Shown here: positions 6,769 through 64,000 of the stretch, piece by piece | How the letters are laid out: each line of letters opens with the position of its first letter | How positions within the stretch are numbered: the stretch's first letter is position 1 | NCBI RefSeq assembly: GCF_964194155.1 | Contig: NC_135908.1 | Span: 7,874,001-7,938,000 of the forward strand | Direction of reading: 5' to 3' | Source: Cetorhinus maximus | Taxonomy: Eukaryota | Length of the DNA stretch: 64,000 nucleotides | Translations under genes and position numbers: made by a program | The notes under the pieces: model-generated | What the model was told of the DNA's origin: nothing | The model's database searches: none | The model's input: only the letters and a program-made list of their open reading frames with translations

Positions 6769-7639
6769 GTTAGTCTGATCTTCTAGGGGCTAGTACAACA
6801 GATACTATGGCCTAGGTTTCAATGGAGTGGTACCTGTAATACAGCAGGGTTGCTTATAGCCCACCTCACCTTCACTTGTAGCCTTGGCAGACTAGTTTTT
6901 CCATGTATCTCTGGGCCTCTGTAAAAAGATCTGTCTGTCTGTGGGTTCCTGACCAAGCTGAGGTTCAGTGCTATCCCTTCTGTTCCTCGTAAGAGGAAAT
7001 ATAAGAGAACTCCTATCTTGTATTTTGAGACCAGCTGAATGGCACCTATTAATAGGTTAGGGCTAAGTCGAGTAGCTGAGTTAGTTGTTCTCAACTGGTG
7101 TGGCAGTAGGGGAATAATAATTGGGCACGTTAGGAAGTGGAATATGGTTAGGGTTTCTGCCCCTCGTCCCCGATTGCTATACGATGACTCTTGTTAGTAA
7201 TGTGCATGTTTGGATAAGGATGGTATCTGTGAACTTACTCGCTAACATCCATATAATCTGCTAACACTCATTGTGTAAGCTTAACATGCAGAATTAACCA
7301 CGTGGGAAAGGCACTAGAGGATGCTTGGTATCACAACAAAACCAAAGACTTCAACAACAAGAAAAAGATTGTACTCTTAAAGAATGTGTCACTCCTGTGA
7401 TTTCACTCCCCTATCCTGTGCCTCCAGGGAAACTGACCTCTAAATAGTGGATAAAAATGGGGAGCACAGTACATGAGATACACCATGGGTACAGAACTGA
7501 GCCCATCTATTTCCCGCACAGGACGTTGGAGTGTTTGACAGTTGACTCCACAAGAAAGGATTGTAGCTCTGGTTCGTGAGTAATACTGACTTAATGTAGA
7601 GCACGTTTAAAACATTAATTCCTTTGATACTGCTTACAG

Positions 7640-7758
7640 ATTTTGATGATGATGGCACTTTAGATAAAGAGGATTTGAAGAAATTGGTGAATTGTCTGAC
7701 AGGAGGCACATCTGATACACAACTGTCAGAGGGGGAAATGAACCAGCTGATTCAAAAT
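7640..7758 (+). CDS. CIB1: CIB1 exon 5 (EF-hand DFDDDGTLDKED...QLIQN)
   Basis: ttacag acceptor, 119 nt, donor gtaagg. Confidence 0.96.
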
Positions 7759-10003
7759 GTAAGGAAAACTCTTATTGAAAAACTACACATTTTAATACCA
7801 CTTAGAACCAACAGCATCCTTGATTTAAATTGGAAAGCTAGGTACAAAGCCAGAACACTTAAAGAGTGGGAAGGTAGTGATACGAACTGTGGAACACCTA
7901 CCTTGCTTCCTTCAGTCTTCCTTTCCTCCATCAAGCCTGCAGATGTAGGAGGAAGGAAAGAGTTACTGGTGCTGGGAAATAATTAGTTAGCGGAGGCAAT
8001 AGAATGAGCTCGGTGAGAGTTTAGATAAGAACACCTGAATTGTGTATTTATATCTTGGGAGGAAAGGGAGATATTAAGGTAAATATTAATCCCAATTTGC
8101 TGTGAGCAAGTTGGCTGCTGCATTTCCTATATTAAAAACAGTGCTTCATTCAGCTGTGTGGTGCTTTGCTACATGTTGAGGTCAGGAAAGGTGCTATTTT
8201 AAATAAAGCTCGCTCTATTTATTTAATCTATTATTTAGTCTGGTTCATCATTCTTTATGCATCAATCTCACCTTGATCTTGCAGGCCAGTATCCTGCTTC
8301 TTGGTCTCTGACAATGTCTCTCTGAATGGAGAGCTGGAGCAATGAGACAGACAATAATGTATTTAAATATTTCATGATCTTTTCCAGTGTAACTGCACCT
8401 TTAGTGCAGGATGCTCCAAATATCAAAACACAGTTGGACAAGTTACCTCAAGGAAGTAGTAGCCACAGGTGTAGGCTTATCAGCTTATTCATATTTGCTG
8501 AACATAAATAAACTTGCTGATTTCCCCCCCACCCCCCCTTTGTCTGAATCTTCTCCCCTCCTCTGGCAATGCAGACTCTAGCTGGGGTAAGGGAACACAA
8601 ACCTCCAGGATCTAGCCCAGGTTACCATTCTTTATGTGAGCATAGTCTGCTGACATTCACGATCTAATTAAGTAGAAGCAGCACACCAACCAAGCTAGAT
8701 CCTTGTCCAAACAAACACGTGCATCCTTTCAACAGGAGTCACTGGCAATCAGTGCCGGAAACTGAGTGGTCAGTTTTCTTGTTGGTGTTGAAGCCCCCAC
8801 GGAGTTACTGCTAACCATGATGTTAAACTGGAGACAATTTTCTGTTTTATAATGAACAACAGCTGCACAGGAATAAGCAACTCCCTTTAGACCCCCTGTA
8901 CATTAATTTTCAAATGCAGTTGTTATGGAACCTACAGGAAGTTTGTGGCAGTGAAGTACAGAATTCAACAAAGCATTCACGGTTTCAGTAAGAACATCAG
9001 CTGGGATTTCACACGAGTTACAGTAATTCATTTCAGGGGAGCTCCTGGTGCTTTACTCTGATGCAAAATCATTTCAATTTTGTATACGAACTCATTCTTC
9101 CCAAGGAGTAAATATATTCCAATGGTTGGATTATTGGTTATACTCAAAGCTACACCCCCTCACATGAGAAACCCAAGAGTGAGGCTACAACAAAAGCAAA
9201 ATACTGTAGATGCTGGAAACACTCAGCATATCTGGCAGCATCAGTGGAGAGGAACAGAGTTAATGCCTCAAGTTGATGACCTTTCAGCTGAATGAGTGAG
9301 GCTGCTGTGTCTGGGACACTGGTCTGTTAATTTACAACTAACTGCAACAAAACTAATTAATTCTAAGAGATTTTAATTAGTCAAGGGTACTCGGTACCAC
9401 AAGTAGTCAACCATGATTTTAGCTTCAAACCTAGGGTTTACATTACTGATGTTTAAATTCCATTACATGGAGATTTGGTGTTTTTTAGCTTCTGTATATG
9501 CCATATTGGGATTTTGACCATTTCCACAAGAAAATCACAGCCTTGCCTGCGCTTAGATGTGACTCTGTGTAACATGCCTACTAACCTGGACAGAGGCTGT
9601 GGGAGAGTCAGACCATCTCAGCTTCACGATCAGTGGAGCACTGGTGGCAAGTGTCGAAGAAGATGTTAGAATTAGAAACAAAAGATGGTTTACATTCTGT
9701 ATGTAACTAATCAATATTCTGTGAATCAAATGCTTGACTGTAGTACATTTAAAGTACTAGTTTATTGCTGTTCATTGATCGGAGCATGGTTGTGATGTTT
9801 AGATGCTAATCTGGTCTGTCCCTTTAAAGCCATTAGGCAAATAAACATTCAAGTTAATTGTTGCTGGCTATAGATTTCAAAGTCCAGTATTAAATAACTA
9901 GGTTTCGTTCTCCTTTTTAAGATGGTTTTGTCACTTTAACATCGGAGGGTATCATGGGTGTATGCCTGACCCACTTTTAAAATATACTTACTGTGTCACC
10001 CAG

Positions 10004-10092
10004 ATTTTGGAAGAATCCGACATTGATAAAGATGGGACTGTGAATCTCTCAGAATTTCAGCACGTCATCTCCAGATCGCCTGACTTTGTGAG
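10004..10092 (+). CDS. CIB1: CIB1 exon 6 (ILEESDIDKDGTVNLSEFQHVISRSPDFV)
   Basis: cccag acceptor, 89 nt, donor gtacag. Confidence 0.96.
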
Positions 10093-10776
10093 GTACAGTG
10101 AACAGAATTTAATGGCGCTTCTGCTTTCACTAACACATACTTTTAACTGAAACGGGATTTAATCACATCTGTAACCTGAGCAGGAGCACGAAGGGACACG
10201 AAGCCCGAAACGTGGTTTCTGAGATGCTATTGTGAGTGCTAAATCTAAATTGATCAAGGGACCAGATCTGTGCTCCATTAAACACGACTAGGCCAACAGT
10301 TCAGGAACTGCAATTGGTCTCTGGTGAAAAATGCCTGTGTGTGAATTACCTGCGAGGAGACAAAAAGCTGATTTTAACTCTCTCTACCCAGCATAAACTG
10401 AGCAGTAAGTGTCCTGCTAAACTGGCACCCTGATTCAATCATCTTTCAATTTAGTGAGAACAGGGGTGGGGGAAATAGCCAGAGTTGCCTGCCTGTTTCA
10501 GATGAGATGTCTCTAGTAATAGACGAATCAAGGTCACATGACATACTTGAAACTCCAGTTGCAAATGGTGTGTACACTGCCCATTTTTCATCTGTTTGTA
10601 AGTGTTGTGCAGCCTCTTCAGGGGCTCAAAGACCAGGTAGGGCCAGGAGGAGGAGCGCTCTTCCTATATCCACAAGAAGTTTTGCCAGCCTGCCTCCCCA
10701 CCCACTTTATTGAATGTAAAAATAGTTTCTGATGTTTTTCCTTACAGATTTTGATGAATGTTTGTTTGCCTTTCAG

Positions 10777-26319: not shown

Positions 26320-28010
26320 AGCTTCTTGAGCGTTGTGGGAGCTGCACTCATCCAGGCAAGTGGAGAGTATTCCATCACACTCCTGACTTGTAGATGGTGG
26401 ACAGACTTTGGGGAGTAAGGATGTGAGTTACTCGTCACAAGATTCCCAGTCTCTGACCTGCTCTTGAAGCCACAGTATTTATATGGCTAGTCCAGTTCAG
26501 TTTCTGGTCAATGGTAAACCACAGGATGTTGCTAGTGGGGTATTCAGCAATGGTAATGCCATTGAATGTCAGGGAAGATAGTTGGATTCTGTCTTGTTGG
26601 AGATGATCTTTGCATGGCATTTGTGTGGCATGAATGCCAGCTATCAGCCCAAGCCTGAAAGTTGTCCAGGTCTTGCTGTATATGGATGCCGACTGCTTCA
26701 GTATCTGAGGAGTTGAGAATCGTGCTGAATATTGTGCAATCATCCCTACATTTAACCTTATGATGGAAGGAAGGTCATTGATGAAGCAGCTGAACATGGT
26801 TGGGCTGAGGACATTACCCTGAGGAACTCCTGCAGCGATGTTCTGGGACTGAGATGAGTGACCTCCAACAACTGCAACTATTTTCCTTTGTGCTAGGTAT
26901 GACTCCAATCGGTGGAGAACTTTCCTCCTGATTCCCATTGACTCCAGTTTTGCCATGGCTCCTTGAAGCCACACCCAGTCAAATGCAGCCTTGATGTCAA
27001 CAGCAGTTACTTTCAACTCACCTCTGGAGTTCAGCTCTTTTGTCCATGTTTGGACTAAGGTTGGAATGAGGTCAGGAGTTGAGTGGCCCTGGCAGAACCC
27101 AAACTGAGCATCAGTGAGCAGGTTGTTTCTGAGTAAGTGCTGTCTGATAGTACTGCAACGACCCCTTCCATGATGATCGAGAATAGGCTGATGGGGTGGT
27201 AATTGGCTGGGTTGGTTTTGTCCTGCTTTTTGAGGACAGGACATACCTGGGCAATTTTTCACATTGCCAGGTCGATGCCAGTGATGTAGCTGTACTGGAA
27301 CAGCTTGGCGACAGGCGCAGCTAGTTCTGGAGACAAGTGTTGGAATATCGTCAGGTCCCATTGCCTTTACAGTGTTCAGTGCCTTCAGCCGTTTCTTGAT
27401 ATCACGTGGAGTGAACTGAATTAGCTGAAGACTGGTATCTATGATGCTGGGGACCTCAGGAGGAGGCCAAGATGGATCATCCACTTGGCACTTCTGGCTG
27501 AAGATTGTTGCAAATGCTTCAGCCGTGTCTTTTGCTCTGATGTGCTGAGCTCCCCCATCATTGAGGATGGGGTTATTTCTGGAGCCTCCTCTTCCAGTGA
27601 GCTGTTTAATTGTCCACCACCAATCACGACTGGATGTGGCAGGGGCTGCAGAGCTTAGATCTGATCTGTTGGTTGTGGGATCGCTTAGCTGTCCGTCACT
27701 TGCTGCTTCTGCTGTTTGGCACGCAAGTAGTCCTGTGTTGTAGCTTCATCAGGCTGACACCTCATGCCCTCCTGCACTCTTCATTGAACCAGGGTTGATG
27801 CCCTGGCTTGGTGGTAATGGTAGAGTGGGGGATATGCCGGGCCATGAGGTTACAGATTGTGTTCGAGTACAATTCTGTGGCTGCCGATGGCCCACAGCAC
27901 CTCATGGATGCCCAGTCTTGAGTTGCTCGGTCTGTTGGAAATCTATCTCATTTAGCACGGGGGATAGTGCCACACAACACGATGGGGGGTATCCTCAATC
28001 CTGAGAGGGG
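26320..28010 (-). mobile_element. LINE (CR1/L2-clade) RT fragment in RCCD1 intron 1
   Basis: 349-aa ORF with RT motifs QFGFCQGHST, DIKAAFDWV, GVPQGNVLSPTMFSCFINDL; catalytic xADD motif disrupted. Confidence 0.9.
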
Positions 28011-28034
28011 GGTATCCTCAATCCTGAGAGGGGA

Positions 28035-29460
28035 CACCCCTCCCTCTTTCCCCGCCCCCTCCACTCCCCCTTTCCCCGCGCCCCCCACTCCCCCCTCCCT
28101 CTTTCCCCGCCTCCCCCACTCCCCCTTCCCGCCTCCCCCACTCCCCCTTCCCTCTTTCCCCACCCCCTCCCTCTTTCCCCACCCCCCTCCCTCTTTCCCC
28201 GCCCCCCCACTCCCCCTTCCCCGCCCCCCCCACTCCCCCCTCCCCCGCCCCCCCACTCCCCCCTCCCCCGCCCCCCCCACTCCCCCGCCCCCCCACTCCC
28301 CCCTCCCCCGCCCCCCCACTCCCCCTTCCCCCGCCCCCCCACTCCCCCTTCCCCCGCCCCCCCACTCCCCCTTCCCCCGCCCCCCACTCCCCCTTCCCCC
28401 CGCCCCCCCACTCCCCCTTCCCCCGCCCCCCCACTCCCCCTTCCCCGCCCCCCCACTCCCCCTTCCCCGCCCCCCCCACTCCCCCTTTCCCCGCCCCCCC
28501 CACTCCCCCTTTCCCCGCCCCCCCCACTCCCCCTTTCCCCGCCCCCCCACTCCCCCTTTCCCCGCCCCCCCCACTCCCCCTTTCCCCGCCCCCCCCACTC
28601 CCCCTTTCCCCGCCCCCCCCACTCCCCCTTTCCCCGCCCCCCCCACTCCCCCTTTCCCCGCCCCCCCCACTCCCCCTTTCCCCGCCCCCCCCACTCCCCC
28701 TTTCCCCGCCCCCCCCACTCCCCCTTTCCCCGCCCCCCCACTCCCCCTTCCCCGCCCCCCCCACTCCCCCTTCCCCGCCCCCCCCACTCCCCCTTCCCCG
28801 CCCCCCCCACTCCCCTTCCCCGCCCCCCCCACTCCCCCTTCCCCGCCCCCCCCACTCCCCCTTCCCCGCCCCCCCACTCCCCCTTCCCCGCCCCCCCCAC
28901 TCCCCCTTTCCCCGCTCCCCCCACTCCCCCTTTCCCCGCCCCCCCCACTCCCTCTTTCCCCGCCCCCCCCACTCCCCCTTTCCCCGCCCCCCCCACTCCC
29001 TCTTTCCCCGCCCCCCCCACTCCCTCTTTCCCCGCCCCCCCCACTCCCTCTTTCCCCGCCCCCCCCCACTCCCTCTTTCCCCGCCCCCCCCCACTCCCTC
29101 TTTCCCCGCCCCCCCACTCCCCCCTCCCTCTTTCCCCGCCCCCCCCACTCCCTCTTTCCCCGCCCCCCCCCACTCCCTCTTTCCCCGCCCCCCCCACTCC
29201 CCCCTCCCTCTTTCCCCGCCCCCCCCTCCCCCCTCCCTCTTTCCCCGCCCCCCCCACTCCCCCCTCCCTCTTTCCCCGCCCCCCCCACTCCCCCCTCCCC
29301 CCCCACTCCCCCCTCCCTCTTTCCCCGCCCCCCCCACTCCCCCCTCCCTCTTTCCCCGCCCCCCCCACTCCCCCCTCCCTCTTTCCCCGCCCCCCCCCAC
29401 TCCCCCCTCCCTCTTTCCCCGCCCCCCCCAATCCCTCCCCCGCCTCACTCCCTCCCCCTC
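28035..29460. repeat. C-rich (+) / G-rich (-) minisatellite, ~21-30 bp units such as CCCCCCACTCCCCCTTTCCCCG
   Basis: Visible tandem iteration over about 1.4 kb. Confidence 0.97.
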
Positions 29461-29830
29461 CAGCCACTAACCTGTCAGGCAGGCTGTGTGACTCCAGGCG
29501 GGGCTGATCCGAGGGGGGCTACCCGCCGGACACTGCCCACCGCCGGCTCCCCGCTCACTGCTGGGGCGCGGCCTCCCCGCTTCGGCTTCCGTCGGGCAAG
29601 TCACTGGGCAGGGCTCCGGTACTTTCCCGTCCGCTTCATGCTCCCTCCGGTTAACAATCTGCCCGAATCGATTAAAGCCGAAGCCAAACCAGCAGCCAGG
29701 CGCCGCCATTCACCGGGCCGCCAAATTCAAACCGCTCCCCTTCCAGCCCGCGCAGACTCAGAAACCGCCAGGCCGCGACCTCACGCCCAGCAAGCACCGC
29801 GCAGCAAATGGCCCTCACTCCCAGAATCCA
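29460..29830 (-). promoter_or_regulatory. CpG-rich RCCD1 promoter and first-exon island
   Basis: Abrupt CpG enrichment around the RCCD1 ATG against a CpG-poor background. Confidence 0.7.
29472..29709 (-). CDS. RCCD1: RCCD1 coding exon 1 ([17 protein letters not shown]...AWSHTACLT)
   Basis: ATG in CpG-rich region, 238 nt, donor gttagt, phase 1. Confidence 0.93.
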
Positions 29831-51563: not shown

Positions 51564-51841
51564 CAGTGTAGAGGGAGCTTTACTCTGTATCTAACCACGT
51601 GTTGTACCTGCCCTGGGAATGTTTGATGGGGACAGTGTAGAGGGAGCTTTACTCTGTATCTAACCCCGTGCTGTACCTGTCCTGGGAGTGTTTGATGGGG
51701 ACGGTGTAGAGGGAGCTTTACTCTGTATCTAACCCCGTGCTGTACCTGCCCTGGGAGTGTTTGATGGGGACAGTGTAGAGGGAGCTTTACTCTGTATCTA
51801 ACCCCGTGCTGTACCTGTCCTGGGAGTGTTTGATGGGGACA
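51564..51841. repeat. 69-bp tandem repeat, 4 copies, in UNC45A intron 1
   Basis: Unit GTGTAGAGGGAGCTTTACTCTGTATCTAACCCCGTGCTGTACCTGTCCTGGGAGTGTTTGATGGGGACA. Confidence 0.96.
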
Positions 51842-52020: not shown

Positions 52021-52032
52021 CCTTTCCGCCAT
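52021..52032 (-). CDS. UNC45A: UNC45A coding exon 1 (MAER)
   Basis: aagATGG strong Kozak context in a CpG-rich region, donor AGG|gtgaga, phase 0 matches exon 2. Confidence 0.8.
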
Positions 52033-52140: not shown

Positions 52141-55100
52141 CAGCTTCAGGCTGCCTCAGCTTCAGGCTGCAGAGATGGGCTCCTCATTGTCAAATCCGAC
52201 TGAATAAATCAAGACTTGTCCATAAATAAATACAGCTTGCAACATCTTTATCCACTATTGTGACCTTTAAGGTTTAGCTTATGAATACAATTGCATTCAT
52301 TGAAAGAAAAACCCAGAGGAAGTTTCTGTTGCAAATATCCATTTATTATCTCGAACTATGGATTGATTCACTCAGGGACTGGAGCTAGTGTCAAGTCCCG
52401 AGGGCTGTTTGCATCAGAAATGTTTAAATCAATGTAACTGTAGGTGTAATCAGCATTGTAAATGAAGTGAGGTACCCTAAAGTGCTGTCCTGTATTAATT
52501 GATGTGTGTTGCTTTGTGTAATGTCAAAATTGCTTTGTATTGTACTTTTACAAATTTTACGAACAAAGTATATTTCAGGGAAAAAATCGATTGATTGATA
52601 TCACATTACGCTTTCTCACTGCTATACTGCAATCAATGGGCTCCTCTGTGGCACAAACATCCATTGGGGCGAGGAATCTGTCACCTTATATAAATGGTCT
52701 TTTTTTTGTGCCAGGTTTCTCTCTAGCCTTTCGGACAATGACTCTTCACTGTAATAGTTCCATGGATTCTGAACACTTTGAGTGTATGAAAACACAAAGT
52801 CTCAGCTGACCATTCTGTCTGCTTCAGTGGTCCCAATCTCTTACCCCACAAGGCTTAGGCCCCTTGACATAAAAGCTTCCCCCAACCTCAAACCTCCCAT
52901 CGTACTCCTAACTGCTTATTTTTAAACTTTTCTTCTCTTAATAATTGAACCATTCAGCACAGTGAGGAATTTTTACCTGGTTCAAAATTAGAAAACGGAA
53001 GTTAATTTTCCTTCACCTCCCCTCTTTCCAAAGTAAACAAGTAAACATCCTGAACCATCTCTAATAATTAATCTATATAGAATTATATAGCTCAGGAACA
53101 GGTCATTTTATCCCATGTTGGTGTTTATATCCCACATGAGCCTCCTCCCACCCTACTTAGGGTCTGGAATGCACTGCCTGAGAGGTGGTGGTGGCAGGTT
53201 CAATCGAGGCATTCAAAAGGGAATTAGAGGGTTATCTGAAAAGGAAGAATGTGCAGGGTTACGGGGTGAAGGCAGGGAATGGCATTAGGTGAATTGCTCA
53301 GTTGGAGAGCTGGTGCAGACATGATGGGCCAAATGGCCTACTTCTGCAGTGTAACAATCCTGTGATTCTGTAATACTTCACCTCGCCTATCAACATATCT
53401 TCCTATTCCTTTCACCCTCATGAACTTATCCAGATTCCCTTTACTGAAGGAATAATCTTCACTGCTTATCTCTGCACCTCTGTCCCAAAGCAATATTTAT
53501 TCTGCAAGTGATTGAATAAACAGAGATGCACTTTCTACAGGTACAGATAATATTATCAGGTAAATAAATATCTGTTAATATTGTTGCACAGAACCTGAAG
53601 TGACACAAAGTGTATGATAAATCATATTTAATTCTATCATCTGTAACAGTGATTTGTACAATATCGTCCCATAATTCTACCCACATTATCATCAAATTTA
53701 CAAAATGTATATTCAAAGTGTTGGTTTTGCTCGGCTCAGTCTGTGACACCCTTACCTCCTTTCGTTTGATCATTTTATGAATTTGGACCATAATCCAGTG
53801 CAGTACTGAGGGAGTGCTGCTGTCAAAGATGTCATGCCTCAGTTCTGCTGTTAAATTTGGAGTACCGACTGCCTGTTCTAGGGTTTGAGTTGAGGACCAA
53901 AAGGACTATTCAAAGAAGAGCGGAGAGTTCCCCAGTTTCCTGGCCAATATTCATCACTCTCCAGCCAACATCACCAAAAGAAAGACCAGCTGGTCATTTA
54001 TCTGAGTGCTGGTCAGTGGGATTCTGCAGCCGTAGAATGGTTGATGCATTTTGCTATGTAACAACAGTCAGTGTATTTCAGTGCAGTGTGAATTAGGTTA
54101 TTTTATAGCTCATATGATCTATAAAAGTTCCTTAACTCGGGTGGGGGAGATACAGAAAGCTGTTCATTTCTGCGTTGTGGAGCAACATTGACTGCAGCGG
54201 TTCAAGAAGGCAGCTCACCACCACCTTCTCAAGGGCAATTAGGGATGCGCAATAAATGCTGGCCCAGCCAGCGACGCCCACATCCCGTGAATGAATAAAA
54301 AAAAGTGCTGAGTTGAAGAAAGGAAGACTTGCATTTCTATAGCACATTTTATGAGCTCAGGGTATCCCAAAGTGCTTTACAGTCACATTTGAAGAGCAGT
54401 CACTGCTGTAATTACAAATTGTGGCTGTTTCCACACAGCAAGATCCCACAAACAGCAACGTGATGATGTCCAGATAATCTGTTTTTAGTGATGTTGATTG
54501 AGGGATAAATATTGGTCAGGACATCGGGGAGAACTCCCCCCCCTGCTCTTCTTCAAAATACTTCCATAGGATCTTTTAAAGCCACAGGAGAGGGCGGATG
54601 GGATCTCGGTTTATTGTCTCATTTGAAAGACAGCACCTCTGACACTGCGGCACTCCCTCAGTACTGCATTCGGAATGCAGTTCTGCTCAATCCATAACTT
54701 AAATCCATAATTTTATGACTCGCGACTGACACTATATCCAATTTTTTAAGTTTGCAAGATGCCAGGGGAATGTTCTGAATCTGTCACCATGTTCACCCAG
54801 ACCTGAAAAGACAAAGACTGAGCTGCTAGTTGAATTAAAGACACATGTGCCGAAATGTTTCGGTGGGTGACTGGGTTACCCCAGATAGTCAGTCAACCCC
54901 TGCTTGAATACCCAACCTCAGTGGGCACAGGTGGCGCGGGGTCAGGATGGTGGGGTGCAGTGGGAGGAGGCACTGAGAGCTATTTCAGTGTCCCTGGTGA
55001 GGTGTACTAAGATCCAGTCGTACATCGGATCACTCTCCAATGATTCCCATTGGGAAGAGTAGGGCTGATGAGAGTGACAACATTAGAAATGCAGGTCCCC

Positions 55101-56193
55101 TTTAAGAGTAAACCAGGAAAAGATTCAGAGTGAACTGAGAGTAGGTGATGCTCATTGAAGCCTGGACTGAAGAGCTGGGCTTTTCCCCAGTAAGGAGGGT
55201 TTTCACTTCTGGACGGGGTGAAGGATCTAGAAGGGAAGAGTGGAAACTGGTATTTGTACTGAACTATGGTTTAACAATAAATTAGTTGTGATTCTCTTAA
55301 ATACCCTCTGAACAAGGGCAATTAGGGATGAACAGTAAATGCTGGCCTAGCCAGCAACGCCCACATCTCATGAATGAATAATATATTTTTAAAAATTCAC
55401 CGGATGTCTTCTGCTGTCTGGTTCAGTAACTGGATATCCACCTATTAAACAGAGAGGAGAGGATCAAGGCTAACAGAACTAATGAGACTACTGCGTGAAG
55501 AGTGGGAATTACGATAAGGAACTGCTGTCGGCACCAGTGAAACATTACCAGTATCAGATAGAACCTTCAGAGGTAGAGAGGTGAAAATTGAAAGAGATGC
55601 AAATCAAATTGTGGGTTTCACCGCCAATCGCAAAGATGTCAGAAGGGGTTGTTTTCTGATGGGCATCGCCAGGGCAAATTGCACCCCCAGCCCTGGTTCC
55701 TGCCCAGCCCTGGTTCCTGCCCAGCCACTGCCTATACTCAGCAGCTACACTCACATTTATCGGAGTGCTGGTCAGTGGGATTCTGCAGCTGTAGAATGGT
55801 TGATGCATTTTGCTACGTAACAACAGTCAGTGTATTTCAGTGCTGTGTGAATTAGGTTATTTTATAGCTCATAAGATCTACAAAAGTTCCTTATAGAAGG
55901 AACCATCTAACGTATGTAACCTGGGAGATCGGAATTATAATCCCTCTGGAGCAGATGCACGGTCAGAGTCAAGGTCTGAGGCAGGGTAGATGGTGAACAT
56001 AGGAACACAGGAACCTCTGAACCAAGAAAGTCCAAGGTCCATTGATTTCGCCTTCCACCAATCTGATAGCCACATGATAACGGAGTTATTGATTAATCAC
56101 AGGGATCAATCTCTTTCAATTAAGAATAGCACAGGAAAACCCCCAGTAGTGGAGGGCTTTTAAAACCACAGCTCCAAAATCACCCACATAAAA

Positions 56194-56435: not shown

Positions 56436-57123
56436 ACTCTAAAGTCGCTGTTTCCCTTGAACATGCTGCACTCGCTGTTTGAGACTCAGGTCTCAAGTTA
56501 TTCATATACTACAACCCAAAATGTCGCTTCCTGAAAGAAATCTATTTAATTTGTGTTGTCTGAACTGAGCATACCACAGTCACCCTGGATACAAGCGCAC
56601 ATTGTGTGATTTTTTTTTTTACCTTATTAAAACTAGCTGCACTCCAGTGGCCTTGGGACAACCTGCAGTCTGAGACATTTAAAGAAAGAAAAACATGCCT
56701 TTTTCACCACCTCAGGACATCCCCAAAAGTGCTTTACAAGCATTGATGTACCTTTTGAAGTGCTGTCACTGTTATAATGTGGGAAACACAGCAGCCAATC
56801 TGTGCTCCCACAAACAGCAACGAGATAAAGCGCAAATAATCGGTTTCAGTGATGTTGGTTAAGGGATGAACATTAACCAAGAGAGAGTACTCTCCTGCTC
56901 TTTCTTCATATGGTGCTGTAGGATCTTTCAAAACGGCCCAAGAGTACAAACAGGGCCACGGTCATAATATTTAAGCTTCTAACCCTGCTTCACCCTTAAG
57001 ATCAGTTGGATGCCTGCATTTCCACCAATGCAAGCAGCAGCAGACAACCCCTCTCCAGTCATGTCCAGCAGTGAAAGGACCTTTAATTGGCAGGAGAGGC
57101 CAAGACACCTGATGACCATCAGC

Positions 57124-57206
57124 CCAGCGATGACCTTTGACCCATCGACGACCATTGTTCCAGCAATGACCTTTGACCCATCGACGACCGCTGACCCAGC
57201 GATGAC
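57124..57206. repeat. 36-bp tandem repeat, ~2.3 copies, just past the SHISAL1-like stop codon
   Basis: CCAGCGATGACCTTTGACCCATCGACGACC.. starting at 57124, 57160 and 57196. Confidence 0.85.
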
Positions 57207-57216
57207 GGCACTGGCC

Positions 57217-57397
57217 TCAGGGTTGTGCCTGCAGTGGGTTTCCATGGTCACCATTGCAGTATCCACGTAGGCAGCAGGGAGGCTGGTACCGCCAGAGACT
57301 GTGTCGGTGTAGAGTGTAGTAATGAAGCAGGTCTGTCAACAACAGGGCCACAACACAGAGACCGTACACACAGACTGCAGTCATTGATCCGTAATTG
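57217..57397 (-). CDS. SHISAL1-like exon 3, TM and tail (NYGSMTAVCVYGLCVVALLLTDLLHYYTLHRHSLWRYQPPCCLRGYCNGDHGNPLQAQP*)
   Basis: ccccccag acceptor, 181 nt to TGA; resembles recalled SHISAL1 [26 protein letters not shown]. Confidence 0.88.
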
Positions 57398-58108
57398 CTG
57401 GGGGGGATGGGGGTTGGTGGGAGTGGGGAAACAGAGAAATAAGAGTAACTGTAATACAGAGTTTGAAAATCTCACCAACTCAATCTCAATCACAGAGTCA
57501 AACAGCAATAAAGCAACCTCTCCTATTTCGGCTCATCTATTTGGTGCAATGGTCATTAACCACTGAGGCTCAGTCCCCAGTCTGTGCTTAGTCAGCTGAC
57601 CTCAGCCATAGCAACAAAGGCAAGATATCTGGTGTCTGTGCCCCAGGGTTATAGACAGACTCTCACCCCCATGCTCATAAACACTTGCACTTTCCAACAG
57701 GAGGTTACTAATGGGCCGAATGGTCATATTCCCACCAGGCAGCGTACAGGAGCAGTAGCATTGGTGGAATTCCACCTCCCACATCTCGGAGGCCACTTGT
57801 TGCAGCTCAGCATCTGCCAACTCAGCAATGGGCTGGCAATTGAAAAGCTTCCACAAACGGGATGGTCAAATGATCATCCTTCTACCCGCCCGCCCACCAC
57901 TACCTGCTGCTGCTCACCTTCCTAGTCCTGTTCAACACCACCCATTTTCCTTTTAACTGGGGGGGGCCCTTGTAGATGCCCTGGCACTAAAGACCCTCTT
58001 CCAAAGCCATCACTGGCTAGATCGCAGTCCTGCTAACCCGGTCTATGACCCCCTCACCTCTGAATCAACCAGCACTCGCACTTGGATACATCCCATGCTC
58101 ATACTCAC

Positions 58109-58316
58109 ACAGAGCTCGTTGTGGGTGCAGTCTGGTTGATTTTCATTGTGCTCTGAAACTGAGACTCATTGCAGCAATATTTCAGGGTTTGGTTGCTCTG
58201 ATGACAGCAGTAGACGCGATTCTGCTCCTCATTAAGCCGCGGACAGTGGAATCCAGAGTGATGCATTTCTGCAGCATCCAGGTACGGCTCACAGGTTCTG
58301 TACTTAAAAGCAGAAA
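58109..58316 (-). CDS. SHISAL1-like exon 2, Cys-rich ectodomain (SAFKYRTCEPYLDAAEMHHSGFHCPRLNEEQNRVYCCHQSNQTLKYCCNESQFQSTMKINQTAPTTSS)
   Basis: ctctgtccag acceptor, 208 nt, donor gtgagt, phases 1/2; aligns to recalled human SHISAL1 RVCEPY..GFHCPRL..CCHHN..FKYCCNETEFQ. Confidence 0.93.
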
Positions 58317-58630
58317 CTGGACAGAGAAAGGTATTGTCAGGACATCATATGTTGTGACTTCAGATCAATAGCATTACAATGTGACGATGATTCAGGGCAA
58401 CAGCACAGCCAGGTACAGAAGACTTTGAATATTTTCAGAAAATGGGCCAACAGATGGCAGGTGCAATTTGATAATCCAGAAATAATTAACCATAAAACTT
58501 AATTTTCCTCTCTTCCAGTCTCTTCTATATCCTCCCCTCCTCATTGCAGGTACACACTCCAGCTGGTGTACACTCCAGCTCTGATATTTTACCCAAGTGC
58601 CTATTTTAATGCATTAACTAGACAGACAGA

Positions 58631-59392
58631 CAATGCGGTCTCCTCTACATTGGAGAGACCAAACGCAGACTGGGTGACCGCTTTGCGGAACACCTTCGGT
58701 CTGTCCGCAAGCATGACCCAGACCTCCCTGTCGCTTGCCATTTCAACACCCCACCCTGCTCTCATGCCCACATGTCTGTCCTTGGCCTGCTGCAATGTTC
58801 CAGTGAAGCTCAATGCAAACTGGAGGAACAGCACCTCATCTTCCGACTAGGCACTTTACAGCCTTCCGGACTTAACATTGAGTTCAACAATTTTAGACCA
58901 TGAACTGTCTCCTCCATCCCCACCCCCTTTCCGATCCCCCTTTTTTCCAATAATTTATATAGATTTCTCTTTTCCCACCTATTTCTATTAGTTTTAAATT
59001 TATTTCCATCCATTGTTTATTCTCCACTTTTTGGCCCATTTCGATCCCTTCCCCCACCCCACCCCCACTAGGGCCCTCTGTCACTTGCTCGTCCTGCTTT
59101 CTACCCTTAATGTCACCATTAGCACATTCCTTAGATAATATCACCACCTTCAACACCCCTTTGTCCTTTTGTTTGTGACATCTTTGGCAATCTCTTCTTT
59201 GCCTCCACCTATCACTGGCCCTCTATCCAGCTCTACCTGTCCCACCCCCCTCAACCAGCTTATATTTCACCTCATTTCTATTTTTCTTTAGTTCTGACGA
59301 AGAGTCATACGAACTCGAAACGTTAACTGTGTTCTTCTCCGCAGATGCCGTCAGACCTGCTGAGTTTTTCCAGCTATTTTTGTTTTTGTTTG
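58631..59392 (+). mobile_element. Penelope-like element 3' fragment (GIY-YIG endonuclease C-terminus and tail) in the SHISAL1-like intron
   Basis: 58631-58903 reads QCGLLYIGETKRRLGDRFAEHLRSVRK...CHFN...LGTLQPSGLNIEFNNFRP*, followed by the gacgaagagtc...cgaaacgttaac tail. Confidence 0.9.
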
Positions 59393-59509
59393 AGCAAGTG
59401 TCTTTGACTTGTCGAGGAAATCACTAATGGCCCCTATCCTGTCCTGAAGCAGTTACTTTACCAACTTCCCAGCATCAGTGAGTGGACAGTGATGAGGATT
59501 AAGGGCAGT

Positions 59510-60146
59510 GCCATCCAATGGACAAAGGGTAGAACTCTCACTTTGAGCCAGAAGGTTATAATCTCGGCTGATATACTCCCAGTGCAGTACTAAGAACGCA
59601 CTGCACTGTCAGAGATGCCGTCTTTTAGATGAGACATTAAACCCAGACCCTAACTGCCCTCTCGGGTGGACATGACAGATCCCATGGGTTTATTCAAAGA
59701 AGAGTAAGGAAGTTCTCCCCAGTGTCAATATAATTATATATTAATTACATTTAATTGTATGCAGTTGGTGGGCATTAACTGGTGATTTACTTAGATCCCT
59801 ATAGACACAGACTGAAGCTGTGGTTGTTGGGTTAGGAGGCATACGCTTGTAATGTGTAACTCTGTAAGTAAATATAAAACTGTGTAAAGATTGGCTCCAG
59901 TTCTATGCTTCGCCAACTGGTTTTCTGGAATATAACATTGGCTAATACTTACCCCTTATTCGATATCACTAAAACAGGTTATCTGGTTATTTATCACATT
60001 GCAGTTTGTGAGGGTTTTGCTGTATGAAAATTGGCTGCTGCATTTCTTACATTACAGCAGTTTTAAAAAGCACTTCATTGACTGTAAAACGCTTTGGGGT
60101 ATCCTGAGGTTATTAACGATACTCTATAAATGCAATTTCTTTCTTT
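59510..60146 (+). mobile_element. Deu-domain-type SINE interrupted by a 215-bp TG...CA element (59723-59937)
   Basis: SINE core resumes after ...TATAACA; tail ataaatgcaatttctttcttt. Confidence 0.7.
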
Positions 60147-60152
60147 ACATAC

Positions 60153-60210
60153 CTGTTGCCAGTAACTCACACAGCAGCAGAACAGTCAGGAGTTGGCTGG
60201 AGCGTGACAT
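60153..60210 (-). CDS. SHISAL1-like coding exon 1, signal peptide (MSRSSQLLTVLLLCELLAT)
   Basis: acaATG, 58 nt, donor CAG|gtatgt, phase 1; probable acceptor ttttaag at 60266 makes 60211-60265 5' UTR. Confidence 0.85.
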
Positions 60211-60376
60211 TGTAGCATCCACAACCTGGACCTCTAATTGTCATCCTAAGGGATGGTGTTTGTGCCTTAAAACAAAGTACACCATTTATTTCCAGTCCAA
60301 CATCTCAACTCTTCCTTCTGCTACTTATCTCTTTGGTGAGACCCTCCCACTGCCCAGAGTTACACAGACAAAAGAG

Positions 60377-60800
60377 NNNNNNNNNNNNNNNNNNNNNNNN
60401 NNNNNNNNNNNNNNNNNNNNNNNNNNNNNNNNNNNNNNNNNNNNNNNNNNNNNNNNNNNNNNNNNNNNNNNNNNNNNNNNNNNNNNNNNNNNNNNNNNNN
60501 NNNNNNNNNNNNNNNNNNNNNNNNNNNNNNNNNNNNNNNNGAGAAAGAGACTTAGAGACAGAGAGAAAGACAGAGACAGAGAGGCAGAGAGGAAGAGAGA
60601 NNNNNNNNNNNNNNNNNNNNNNNNNNNNNNNNNNNNNNNNNNNNNNNNNNNNNNNNNNNNNNNNNNNNNNNNNNNNNNNNNNNNNNNNNNNNNNNNNNNN
60701 NNNNNNNNNNNNNNNNNNNNNNNNNNNNNNNNNNNNNNNNNNNNNNNNNNNNNNNNNNNNNNNNNNNNNNNNNNNNNNNNNNNNNNNNNNNNNNNNNNNN
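60377..60800. other. Two N runs (60377-60540, 60601-60800) flanking a GA-rich stub
   Basis: Undetermined or masked bases. Confidence 0.99.
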
Positions 60801-62398
60801 CACAGACACACTCTTAAACTCCCCCACAGACTCACAGACACACACTCTCACTCCCTCTCACACTCACAGACACACTCGCTCACACCCTCACACACTCATA
60901 GACACACTCTGTCACTCCCCCACACATTCACAGACACAGTCTCTAACTCCCCCACACACACTCACAAACACACTCTCTCACTGGCCCACACACACTCACA
61001 AACACAATCCCTCACTCCCCGTCACAATCACAGACACGTTCTCTCACTCCACCTTTCACTCACAGACACACTCTCTCACTCCCCCACACACTCACAGACA
61101 CACTCTCTCACTCCCGCAGACACTCACAGACACAAACTCTCACTCCCCGTCATACTCAAAGACACACTCTCTCACTCCGCCACACACTCACATACACACT
61201 CACTTACTCTCCCCCACACACTCACAGACACAGTCTCTAACGCCCCCACACACACTCACAAACACACTCTCTCACTCCCCCACAAACACACAGACACACT
61301 CTCTCACTGCACCACACACTCACCGACACACTCTCTCACTCCCCCACACACTCACACACACACTCTCTCACTCCCCCTCACACTCACATACATACTCACT
61401 CAGTCCCCAAACACACTCACAGACACACTCTCTCACTCCCCCACACACTCACCGACACACTCTCTCACTCCCCCACACACTCACAGACACACTCTCTCAC
61501 TCCCTCACACACTCACAGACACAGTCTCTCACTCCCCCACACACTCACAGACACACTCTCTCACTCCCACACACACTCACACACACACACTCACACTCCA
61601 CCACACACTCACAGACACACTCTCTCACTGCCCCACACACTCACAGACACACTCTCCTATTCCCCCCCACACAGTCACAGACACACTCTCGCACTCCCTC
61701 ACACACACTCACAGACACACTCTCTCACACCCCCACACACTCACAGACACACTCTCTCACTCCCACACGCACTCACATACACACTCTCTCACTCACCGCG
61801 ACACACTCACTGACACAATCTCTCAGTCCCCCACACACTCACAGACACACTCTATCACTCCCTCACACACTCACTGAAACACTTTCTCACCCCCCCACAC
61901 ACTCACAGACACACTCTCTCACTCCCCCACGCACTCACAGATACACTCTCTCAGTCCCCCATACACTCACAGACACACTCTCTACCTCCCTCACAAACTC
62001 ACTCACACAATCTCTCAGTCCCCCACACATTCACAGACACACTCACTCACTCCCTCACAAACTCACTGCCACAATCTCTCAGTCCCCCACACACTCACAG
62101 ACACCCTCTTTCACTCATCCACTCACACTCACAGACACACTCTCTCAGTCCCACACATACTCACAGACACACTCTCTCACTCCCCCACACACTCACAGGC
62201 ACACTCTCTCACTCCCACACACACTCACAGACACACTCTCTCACTCTCCCACACAATCACAGACACACTCTCCCACTCCCCCACACACTCACAGACACAC
62301 TCTCTCACATCCCCACACACTCACAGACACACTCTCTCTCTCCCCCTCACACACTCAAAGACACACTCTCTCTGACCCACACACACACACACACACAC
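60801..62398. repeat. CA/CT-rich degenerate minisatellite (unit ~CACACACTCACAGACACACTCTCTCACTCCCC)
   Basis: Visible low-complexity tandem array. Confidence 0.95.
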
Positions 62399-64000
62399 AG
62401 GTGAAATCGAATGAAAAGAAAAGAGGAAGAGAAAAAAGAACCAAGAAAGAACAGAGAGGGGAGAGATAGCTGGGAGAGAGAGAAGAGATAAGACATTGGG
62501 TAAGAACAGCTGAGATGCCCAGCCTAGTCAAATGGCCTGTCAGTAATCAGTTTAAGCTCTCATGAAAGAATGGCTAGTTGAGGGAGGAGACTGATGGTGT
62601 ACAGGGTCACATCTTCAGGAGAAAAGGGAATGTGAAGGAATTATTCTTAATGGATTTTACTTAAGGTGTAATCTGTAGAACTAACCTTTATATCCCAGAC
62701 CGATCATAATTTTAATGTATACTTAGTTGATCTTTCATGATATTGCATTTGGGGAGTCAAAATTGTTTTGTCTGTCGGTGGTAGGGTGAGACACCTTTGG
62801 ATAATTAGCCCAGGGCATGTAGATATAATTCAGTCCCCATTTTAAAATCATACATTCTATTTTATTTTTAATATTTTTGTAAATGTAAATTGCTTCTGCT
62901 GTAAATTCCTACATCAATATATTTATCATGGAAATTACCTATGTAAACTTGTCACAACCCCTGCCCCCAAACAGTGATGGCACTGTAGCATCTCCTCTGG
63001 TGGGAAGGTACCTTACAGTGTGACATGTTTACATATGAAATTTCCACTGTAAACGTGGTCAGGAATTTCATACAATTTCCATGCAGACTGGATCCCTCAC
63101 TATTTAAGTTTGAAAGCTATAAATAAAATTCACAGCCTAAGATCTTAAAAGAATACATTGCTGTAATATAATCAATGAAATTGTTCAAACCTGAGTGCAA
63201 CTCCCAGTGTTACCAGAGTTTATTTCAGAATTAGGCTGCTGGAGAAATCTCTGGCGCCAACCAGTAGCAATAAAGGAAGTTCTTGCAAAGCTATCAAAAA
63301 GTTGAATTTTTTTCCCCGAAAATGTAACTAGGATAAACAGAGGTGGGGGTGGAGGGGTGGGGAAGCAGTTGTGCGCTTGGATTGAAGTTAATTTGCGTAT
63401 GAAGAATATGAAAAAATTGTGAAGTGGGGGGGGGTGGGGATTTAAAATTTACGAAGGGGTCTGTATCAAACTCAGCACAATAGAGCCTGTGAGACCGGGG
63501 GTGGTGGGGGGAGGATGCTATTCGACTGCAGGAGCATCACAGCCCCACCACATCATCACCTGCACCTTCCAGCGGACTCACTGAACCGGGGGAGTGGGCA
63601 CGCTCGGTGTTTCCTGGGCAGCTTTGAGTTCGAGTCCTGACCAGGCAACGCTACCTTGGACGGTTTTTTAAATAAGACGATGGTTCCAGTGACCTGCTTG
63701 TCACTGTAGTTAAGGGTTTATCATTTTGACACCGAATCCAAACATTTAACATAAAATAAAAAAAGCCCCACGGCCATACGAGTGAACAATACACGGAATT
63801 CATCTCACAAGGTGGGGGCTGGCGAGGAATTAATCGTAGAGCGAATAAAGTCAGATTAAACCGCAAGCCCCTTTCTCGAGGTTTCCCTTACCTGCTTCAG
63901 GTAAGATCACCCAGGTCGCTCGCTGCGTGCAGGGAAGGAATTCCGTTCGTAAAATCTAATAATAATAATTAAATTTTAAAAAATGCGCTCGACTGCTTTT

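Follow-up and report, generated by a model that had tools for sequence, protein, structure and literature searches.

A three-exon gene of the SHISAL1 family lies upstream of UNC45A

The window, a 64,000-nucleotide stretch of Cetorhinus DNA, carries a gene of three coding exons upstream of UNC45A; this gene and all features described with it are on the minus strand. Coding exon 1 (60153-60210, 58 nt) holds the start codon and a predicted signal peptide in 19 codons plus 1 nt, ends at a phase-1 donor, and aligns to the N termini of shark and chimaera orthologues. Coding exon 2 (58109-58316, 208 nt) encodes the end of the signal peptide, a six-cysteine Shisa_N ectodomain with three N-glycosylation sequons, and a stalk. 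It ends at a phase-2 donor, and its product is 66 to 81% identical to seven shark and ray proteins. Coding exon 3 (57217-57397, 181 nt) encodes a predicted transmembrane helix with conserved Tyr100, Gly101, and Asp111, followed by a 33-residue tail containing cysteines and the stop codon. Both introns are of the GT-AG type. Intron 1 (58317-60152, phase 1) lies eight codons ahead of the first cysteine, and intron 2 (57398-58108, phase 2) lies two codons ahead of the conserved tyrosine. The donors read GTATGT and GTGAGT, and both acceptors end in CAG and are pyrimidine-rich. Splicing yields a coding sequence of 447 nt, that is, 148 amino acids and a stop codon, and full-length orthologue models align without gaps across both junctions. 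The original prediction of three minus-strand exons that splice in phase into a 148-residue protein was thus borne out by the splice sites and by the orthologue models.

The frame of exon 3 is present in the window's list of stop-to-stop open reading frames (57217-57471).

Further features can be proposed around the coding exons. Judged from sequence only, exon 1 probably continues in the 5′ direction as untranslated sequence through positions 60211 to 60265, up to a candidate acceptor that ends at 60266. A candidate upstream noncoding exon (63892-64000; CpG observed/expected ratio, 0.88) has at its end the sole strong donor between 60210 and 64000, and its assignment to this gene is a guess. 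A candidate poly(A) signal, ATTAAA (57082-57087), lies 130 nt past the stop codon. An upstream open reading frame of 25 codons (60167-60244) is out of frame and overlaps the start codon. Its first half resembles the N-terminal extension of three ray models, which begin at an upstream in-frame ATG. The resemblance was equaled in 0 to 1 of 500 shuffles, versus 57 to 480 of 500 for the other two frames, the frame having been chosen after the extensions of the ray models had been inspected. Rays appear to start in frame at an ATG equivalent to shark position 60244. In Cetorhinus, this ATG would compete with the main start codon if it lies within the mRNA.

The first coding exon of UNC45A (52021-52032) lies on the same strand, 5,185 nt downstream of the stop codon of the SHISAL1-family gene, and the later UNC45A exons match TPR families and UNC-45 structures. 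Next come an RCC1-repeat gene, which we take to be RCCD1 from gene order, and CIB1. Read-through into UNC45A was considered for this shark and rejected: the sole donor-like site of exon 3 is weak and in phase 1, and UNC45A exon 2 starts in phase 0.

The protein has the six-cysteine core of SHISAL1

The cysteines at residues 28, 44, 56, 57, 67, and 68 form the pattern C-x15-C-x11-CC-x9-CC, and sequons are found at N61, N69, and N80. Across the six frames of the window, a single occurrence of this cysteine pattern was found, versus none in 100 block shuffles, in either its strict or its loose form. Exon 2 scored 27 bits against Pfam Shisa_N (cutoff, 22). Twenty-two alignment columns, including the six cysteines and Asn80, are invariant across 51 family members. 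Hydropathy peaks at residues 7 to 25 (1.74) and 94 to 112 (2.09), and a model of the whale shark orthologue has helices at residues 3 to 22 and 91 to 126; these agree with the signal peptide and single transmembrane helix proposed for the gene. That structural model is weak (pLDDT, 65.6; pTM, 0.29). Its top Foldseek row was the Shisa3 N-terminal domain (PDB 5M0W) at a probability of 0.82 but an E value of 0.38, and a wide fold search with it gave generic helix matches only (Z up to 4.4). The mouse Shisa3 domain in 5M0W was also the best PDB match by sequence (E = 5e-6), and an Atlas search returned SHISAL1-type clusters. The affiliation with the SHISAL1 family that was first suggested is therefore upheld by the Shisa_N score, by the shared cysteine core, and by the tree placement described below. 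We are highly confident that the window gene is an intact member of this family; on hydropathy, it encodes a type I membrane protein.

The tail has cysteines at +19, +20, and +25, counted from the conserved aspartate. Its 33 residues were scanned for the PY motif [LP]PxY, and none was found; the last three residues of the protein do not match the PDZ-type motif [ST]x[VLI]. A C-terminal motif of the S/T-F-Q type, present in 13 of 14 canonical SHISAL1 proteins, is absent from the window protein and from all nine full-length orthologues described below, and a lamprey protein likewise ends without it.

Cartilaginous fishes carry two SHISAL1-family genes

Of 11 candidates in a search with exon 2, seven were matching proteins, each from a shark or a ray. 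A profile search added Chiloscyllium, Callorhinchus, and Carcharodon, bringing to at least 10 the other cartilaginous fishes with an orthologue among the best 120 of 268 matches. Next in that ranking, within the same best 120, came the lamprey protein at 146 bits and then canonical SHISAL1 at no more than 141 bits. We refer to the window gene and these orthologues as the short branch. The window protein is 57 to 77% identical to nine full-length proteins of this branch and 39 to 46% identical to 14 canonical proteins, which agrees with the claimed divergence from SHISAL1. It is also 92% identical to the Carcharodon model, which is truncated after exon 2 at 91 residues. Most of the orthologue models are named "shisa-like-1" or "-1a" at NCBI; they are automatic predictions carrying the SHISAL1 name, and as orthologues of the window gene they (P0002 to P0011, including chiPu_0012292) fall with it in one branch at 100/100 support. 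To call the gene hidden was therefore an overstatement, since NCBI models an orthologue in other sharks, in rays, and in a chimaera. The description of an unrecognized paralogue holds in part: its separate identity had gone unrecognized, but the proteins were already in NCBI under the SHISAL1 name.

Trees of 39, 32, and 29 rows were built from about 120 named matches, trimmed to run from the signal peptide to the proximal tail; lamprey was the most remote lineage included, and the trees are read here as unrooted. Six unnamed matches from the profile search and all unnamed matches from a length-restricted search were set aside. Of 97 further identifiers, 15 were screened: one was dropped as canonical-like, four fish-like sequences were placed in the trees, and 10 that had no named neighbor, and that may include human sequence, stayed outside every tree and count. 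In the 39-row tree, the short copies stood on one side at 100/100, and three shark canonical copies fell among bony-vertebrate SHISAL1; the support for the canonical branch was 100/98 in another of the trees.

Both copies occur together in Callorhinchus, Heterodontus, and Pristis, and an orthogroup table places both in the bamboo shark as well, the short copy on chr40 and the canonical copy on chr19. Among the first three species, pairwise identity is 50 to 62% for the short copies and 87 to 92% for the canonical copies, and the corresponding distances (0.52 to 0.79 versus 0.09 to 0.15) indicate that the short copy evolves 4- to 6-fold faster. For the short copies, identity is 41 to 43% to the lamprey protein and 32 to 36% to the canonical copy within the same species. 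The shark canonical copies are 71 to 75% identical to coelacanth and monkey SHISAL1.

The window gene shares much with SHISAL1 (KIAA1644; teleost shisal1a/b): the cysteine spacing, the CE-Y, GF-CPRL, and K-CCN cores, the stalk Asn80 sequon, and the Tyr, Gly, and Asp of the helix. The two intron positions can be added to this list. Some SHISAL1 models of birds and carp are partial and have their start or their point of divergence eight residues ahead of the first cysteine, the position of intron 1, and six truncated canonical models end or diverge two residues ahead of the conserved tyrosine, the position of intron 2. Read from where these partial protein models start and stop, both positions are probably common to the two genes. 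Shared intron positions point to duplication at the DNA level, and a retrocopy origin was rejected on this ground. The two genes differ in the tail, which has 29 to 62 residues in short copies (33 in the window protein) and 65 to 134 in SHISAL1, and in its cysteines, a cluster at +19 to +25 in the window protein versus a single cysteine at +12 in SHISAL1. They also differ in neighborhood, a MAN2A2-UNC45A-RCCD1 block for the window gene and PARVB/PRR5 for SHISAL1. These results establish the window gene as a true paralogue of SHISAL1 on a separate branch, as originally suggested, rather than a relocated orthologue; it is a new member of the SHISAL1 family.

Synteny places the paralogue before the split between sharks and bony vertebrates

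Supplementary file 6 of the hagfish genome paper lists at least nine rows for the SHISAL1 orthogroup OG_5411 (PMC10972751). Those of the bamboo shark are Chipu0012292 on chr40, whose identifier matches the short-branch protein chiPu_0012292 (P0009), and another on chr19. The distance from Chipu0012292 to RCCD1 is 56 kb, and that to the MAN2A2 orthologue is 17 kb (PMC10972751). Xenopus has two rows, one of them on XTR3 at 98.173 Mb, between man2a2 (98.115 Mb) and rccd1 (98.214 Mb) (PMC10972751); this gene, Xetrov90008888m, is represented here by its table row. The table labels it alpha2 (PMC10972751), which we read as a label of the chromosome. In gar, SHISAL1 lies beside parvb on LG8, with a second row on an unplaced scaffold. 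A single row is listed for each of chicken, lamprey, and hagfish, that of chicken being canonical SHISAL1 by PRR5 (PMC10972751). The neighborhood of the window gene, with its UNC-45, RCC1-repeat, and CIB1 genes, is thus distinct from that of canonical SHISAL1, as had been claimed. The synteny across species rests on MAN2A2, RCCD1, PRC1, and FURIN. Because a SHISAL1-family gene occupies the same address in shark and frog, it is older than the shark/bony split: the window gene predates that split and is not shark-only, the frog part of this conclusion coming from the table row. The suggestion that the gene was kept in cartilaginous fish was accordingly too narrow, given the Xenopus gene between man2a2 and rccd1 and a divergent short-tailed member in trout.

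The trout protein, "shisa-like-1a" of rainbow trout, came from the length-restricted search; it has 159 residues, the same layout, and a short tail. Four unnamed relatives are 47 to 56% identical to it. Together, these five fish-divergent sequences joined the short branch of sharks at 95/78 and 87/76, where long branches meet. Tyr100, Gly101, and Asp111 are the consensus in the short, fish-divergent, and canonical groups alike. Site patterns joining the short and fish-divergent groups are weak (three shared derived versus three opposing), and a topology in which the fish-divergent group branches from canonical SHISAL1 of ray-finned fishes was not rejected by an AU test (P = 0.175). In the Atlas, clusters resembling the trout protein include one of SHISAL2B. 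Judged by its sequence, the trout protein may be a bony-fish member of the short branch.

Small-scale duplication is the simpler reading of the origin

The original prediction tentatively traced the paralogue to whole-genome duplication. The SHISAL1 orthogroup is assigned to linkage group E (PMC10972751), and on bamboo shark chr40, CLGC accounts for 25 of the first 30 of 128 rows and CLGE for none (PMC10972751). Chromosome 40 corresponds to CLGC alpha1, and chr19, which holds the canonical copy, to CLGE/O alpha2, as seen in the first 30 rows for each, out of 128 and 263, respectively (PMC10972751). Since the short and canonical copies lie on nonparalogous chromosomes, there is no support for an in-place origin by whole-genome duplication: the short copy is on a linkage-group-C chromosome, and the family is assigned to E. 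We regard small-scale duplication and transposition as a simpler reading than an ohnologue that moved.

One other group-E family lies near the short copy on chr40 (PMC10972751).

Such a moved ohnologue would be a 1R/2R copy that left its linkage-group-E chromosome early and came to rest in the linkage-group-C block. We judge this unlikely, although its age fits, with the gene on both sides of the shark/bony split, and although lamprey and hagfish have one copy each among the rows listed. In ohnologue pairs, one copy commonly evolves faster, and this too suits the short copy. Against it stand the group C content of chr40 in the rows listed and the location of the canonical copy on the E/O alpha2 chromosome. 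The short copy's duplication class is given as "nd" in the hagfish-paper table (PMC10972751), and an extra translocation is required.

A more recent origin, as a duplicate specific to cartilaginous fishes that fast evolution draws toward lamprey, is highly improbable. The length of the short branch would suit it, and a tree uniting every cartilaginous-fish copy in one clade was not rejected by AU tests (P = 0.224, or 0.0504 with more rows); the trees by themselves leave the timing of the duplication unfixed. However, a SHISAL1-family gene is found at the same address in Xenopus, and the short copies are nearer to lamprey than to their conspecific canonical copies. In addition, nine alignment columns unite the short copies and lamprey against shark and bony canonical SHISAL1, with no column for either alternative (9:0:0). 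Long branches can give such a site pattern.

That the window gene is the sole SHISAL1 of the Cetorhinus genome, relocated and diverged, is extremely improbable, since despite the "shisa-like-1" and "-1a" labels at NCBI, four species with a short copy also hold a canonical copy, and shark canonical copies remain close to coelacanth and monkey SHISAL1.

A possible role as an auxiliary subunit

Shisa-family proteins bind receptors and channels, whose maturation or activity they control, and are described in Frizzled and FGFR maturation and as AMPA and GABA-A receptor subunits (PMC10531659). With SHISA1 to SHISA9 the window protein shares Pfam Shisa_N, a predicted signal peptide, and a single helix. 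The Shisa-like group is characterized by six cysteines and the Shisa proteins proper by eight (PMC8621455); the window protein has six and the SHISA1 to SHISA9 ectodomain eight (PMC8621455, PMC10531659), and the window protein is without their proline-rich tail and PY or PDZ motif. SHISAL2A/B (FAM159A/B), WBP1/WBP1L, and VOPP1 have the six-cysteine, Shisa-like, single-pass layout in common with it (PMC8621455 for FAM159) and are set apart here by description, not by tree. WBP1L is palmitoylated and binds NEDD4 ligases through PY motifs (PMC6991692), which are missing from the window protein. No functional study of SHISAL1 was found among the literature matches listed.

By analogy with these proteins, we tentatively propose the following mechanism, to which we give slightly less than even weight. 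The signal peptide, cleaved roughly after Ala22, would direct the protein into the endoplasmic reticulum, where the six cysteines would close a small glycosylated Shisa domain. One helix would anchor the protein, with the short tail inside. Acting as an escort or auxiliary subunit, the protein would then hold a membrane client by a conserved face of the ectodomain and by two polar residues of the helix, Tyr100 and Asp111, and would thereby influence how that client matures, reaches the surface, or works. The tail cysteines probably serve as palmitoylation sites. Recruitment of NEDD4 ligases or PDZ scaffolds is unlikely because the tail has neither motif.

The paralogue might instead be a competitor or decoy of canonical SHISAL1, presenting the same client face without the signaling tail, possibly with a secreted form made by retention of intron 2. 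The ectodomain core is indeed shared, the S/T-F-Q motif of most canonical proteins is missing from the short copies, and read-through from exon 2 meets a stop codon within two codons. We consider this improbable nonetheless. The ectodomain and helix carry many fixed differences, which suggest that the client has changed, and since lamprey also lacks the C-terminal motif, the short form may be ancestral. Models that end after exon 2 are found for several canonical genes too, so that such forms look like annotation noise.

That the gene is a decaying duplicate with little or no function is very unlikely. In favor of decay, its distances exceed those of the canonical copies across the three species compared above, the Carcharodon model ends with exon 2, and the frame of an upstream ATG overlaps the start codon. 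However, an intact open frame with all six cysteines is kept here and in nine further species that range from chimaera to rays; the splice sites are conserved, and the address is conserved in frog. Taken as a whole, then, we find it quite likely that the window holds a second SHISAL1-family gene that arose by duplication at the DNA level before the shark/bony split, and that lay by then in the MAN2A2-UNC45A-RCCD1 block, an auxiliary-subunit role being the most likely function but the less certain part of this reading.

Implications for the family and for UNC45A

The proteins of this branch are in NCBI, and their orthogroup is printed as table rows (PMC10972751). A second SHISAL1 paralogue was not described among the literature matches listed in a search of openly accessible papers. 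The protein architecture itself is not new. The finding adds a jawed-vertebrate paralogue to a family that tunes Wnt, FGF, AMPA, and GABA-A receptors, and it reveals that database names merge two genes separated for more than 400 million years. A fast, short-tailed copy beside a slow one also offers a natural comparison for finding the binding client of SHISAL1.

The fixed address of the gene gives a direct place to seek it in birds and mammals. The paralogue could conceivably survive into mammals as an unannotated human membrane-protein gene at the 5′ end of the UNC45A locus, between MAN2A2 and UNC45A, its exons being read as alternative UNC45A exons, a reading about which we are somewhat doubtful. 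It follows from the shared address in shark and frog together with a long UNC45A form: UniProt accession A0A1W2PNX8, confirmed by name as UNC45A, is presumably a form of about 1,084 residues with an extra N-terminal stretch of about the size of the window protein. A review gives five RefSeq isoforms, the longest of 944 residues, and so lends this reading no support. A hidden human copy may also give a membrane-anchored read-through product with UNC45A. If the gene does persist in birds and mammals, their annotation would lack a cell-surface protein encoded beside the disease gene UNC45A.

Leader and exon 2 end of the short SHISAL1-family gene

An upstream, out-of-frame ATG in the window opens a minus-strand reading frame (60244-60167) that overlaps the start codon of the short SHISAL1-family gene. 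Three ray models, which are predictions of the orthologous gene that begin at an upstream in-frame ATG, have an in-frame start region homologous to this out-of-frame region of the window. Because the homologous leader is in frame in rays but out of frame here, the sequences imply that rays and sharks differ by a frame shift in the leader.

The NCBI model from the white shark Carcharodon (P0011) is only 91 aa long and terminates just past exon 2. Read-through of the exon 2 donor in the window likewise meets an immediate stop (58108-58103). The early end of the Carcharodon protein may represent either an annotation gap or a secreted form.

Sequences flanking the gene and its neighbours

Just upstream of exon 1 lie two assembly gaps (runs of N, 60377-60800), which could accommodate a 5′ exon or promoter. 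A minisatellite with a 32-bp unit (about 49 copies, 83% matches; 60801-62398) is also located directly upstream, and the 3′ untranslated region has an 18/36-bp tandem repeat at its beginning (57123-57206). Between the gene and UNC45A, two near-identical copies of a segment of about 150 bp were recognized by eye (53990-54140 and 55745-55895); this segment is probably a repeat element.

The first coding exon of UNC45A (52021-52032, minus strand) apparently comprises only four codons and is preceded by a separate, GC-richer promoter-like stretch of its own. UNC45A intron 1 contains a tandem repeat with a 69-bp unit (4 copies, 96%; 51564-51841). Farther away, a G+C-rich purine/pyrimidine repeat array of about 1.5 kb (27922-29520) lies close to the RCC1-repeat gene's 5′ end, and CIB1 (7600-10150, plus strand) adjoins that gene; human CIB1 is several hundred kilobases from RCCD1. 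Two minus-strand LINE-type reverse transcriptase remnants were found, one with an RVT_1 match (26435-27745) and one judged by eye (1202-2198).

Expression of hagfish SHISAL1

In the hagfish genome paper (PMC10972751), the supplementary expression entry for the single hagfish SHISAL1 peaks in brain (FPKM 484; supplementary file 5, row 24233). This peak hints at the ancestral tissue of expression.
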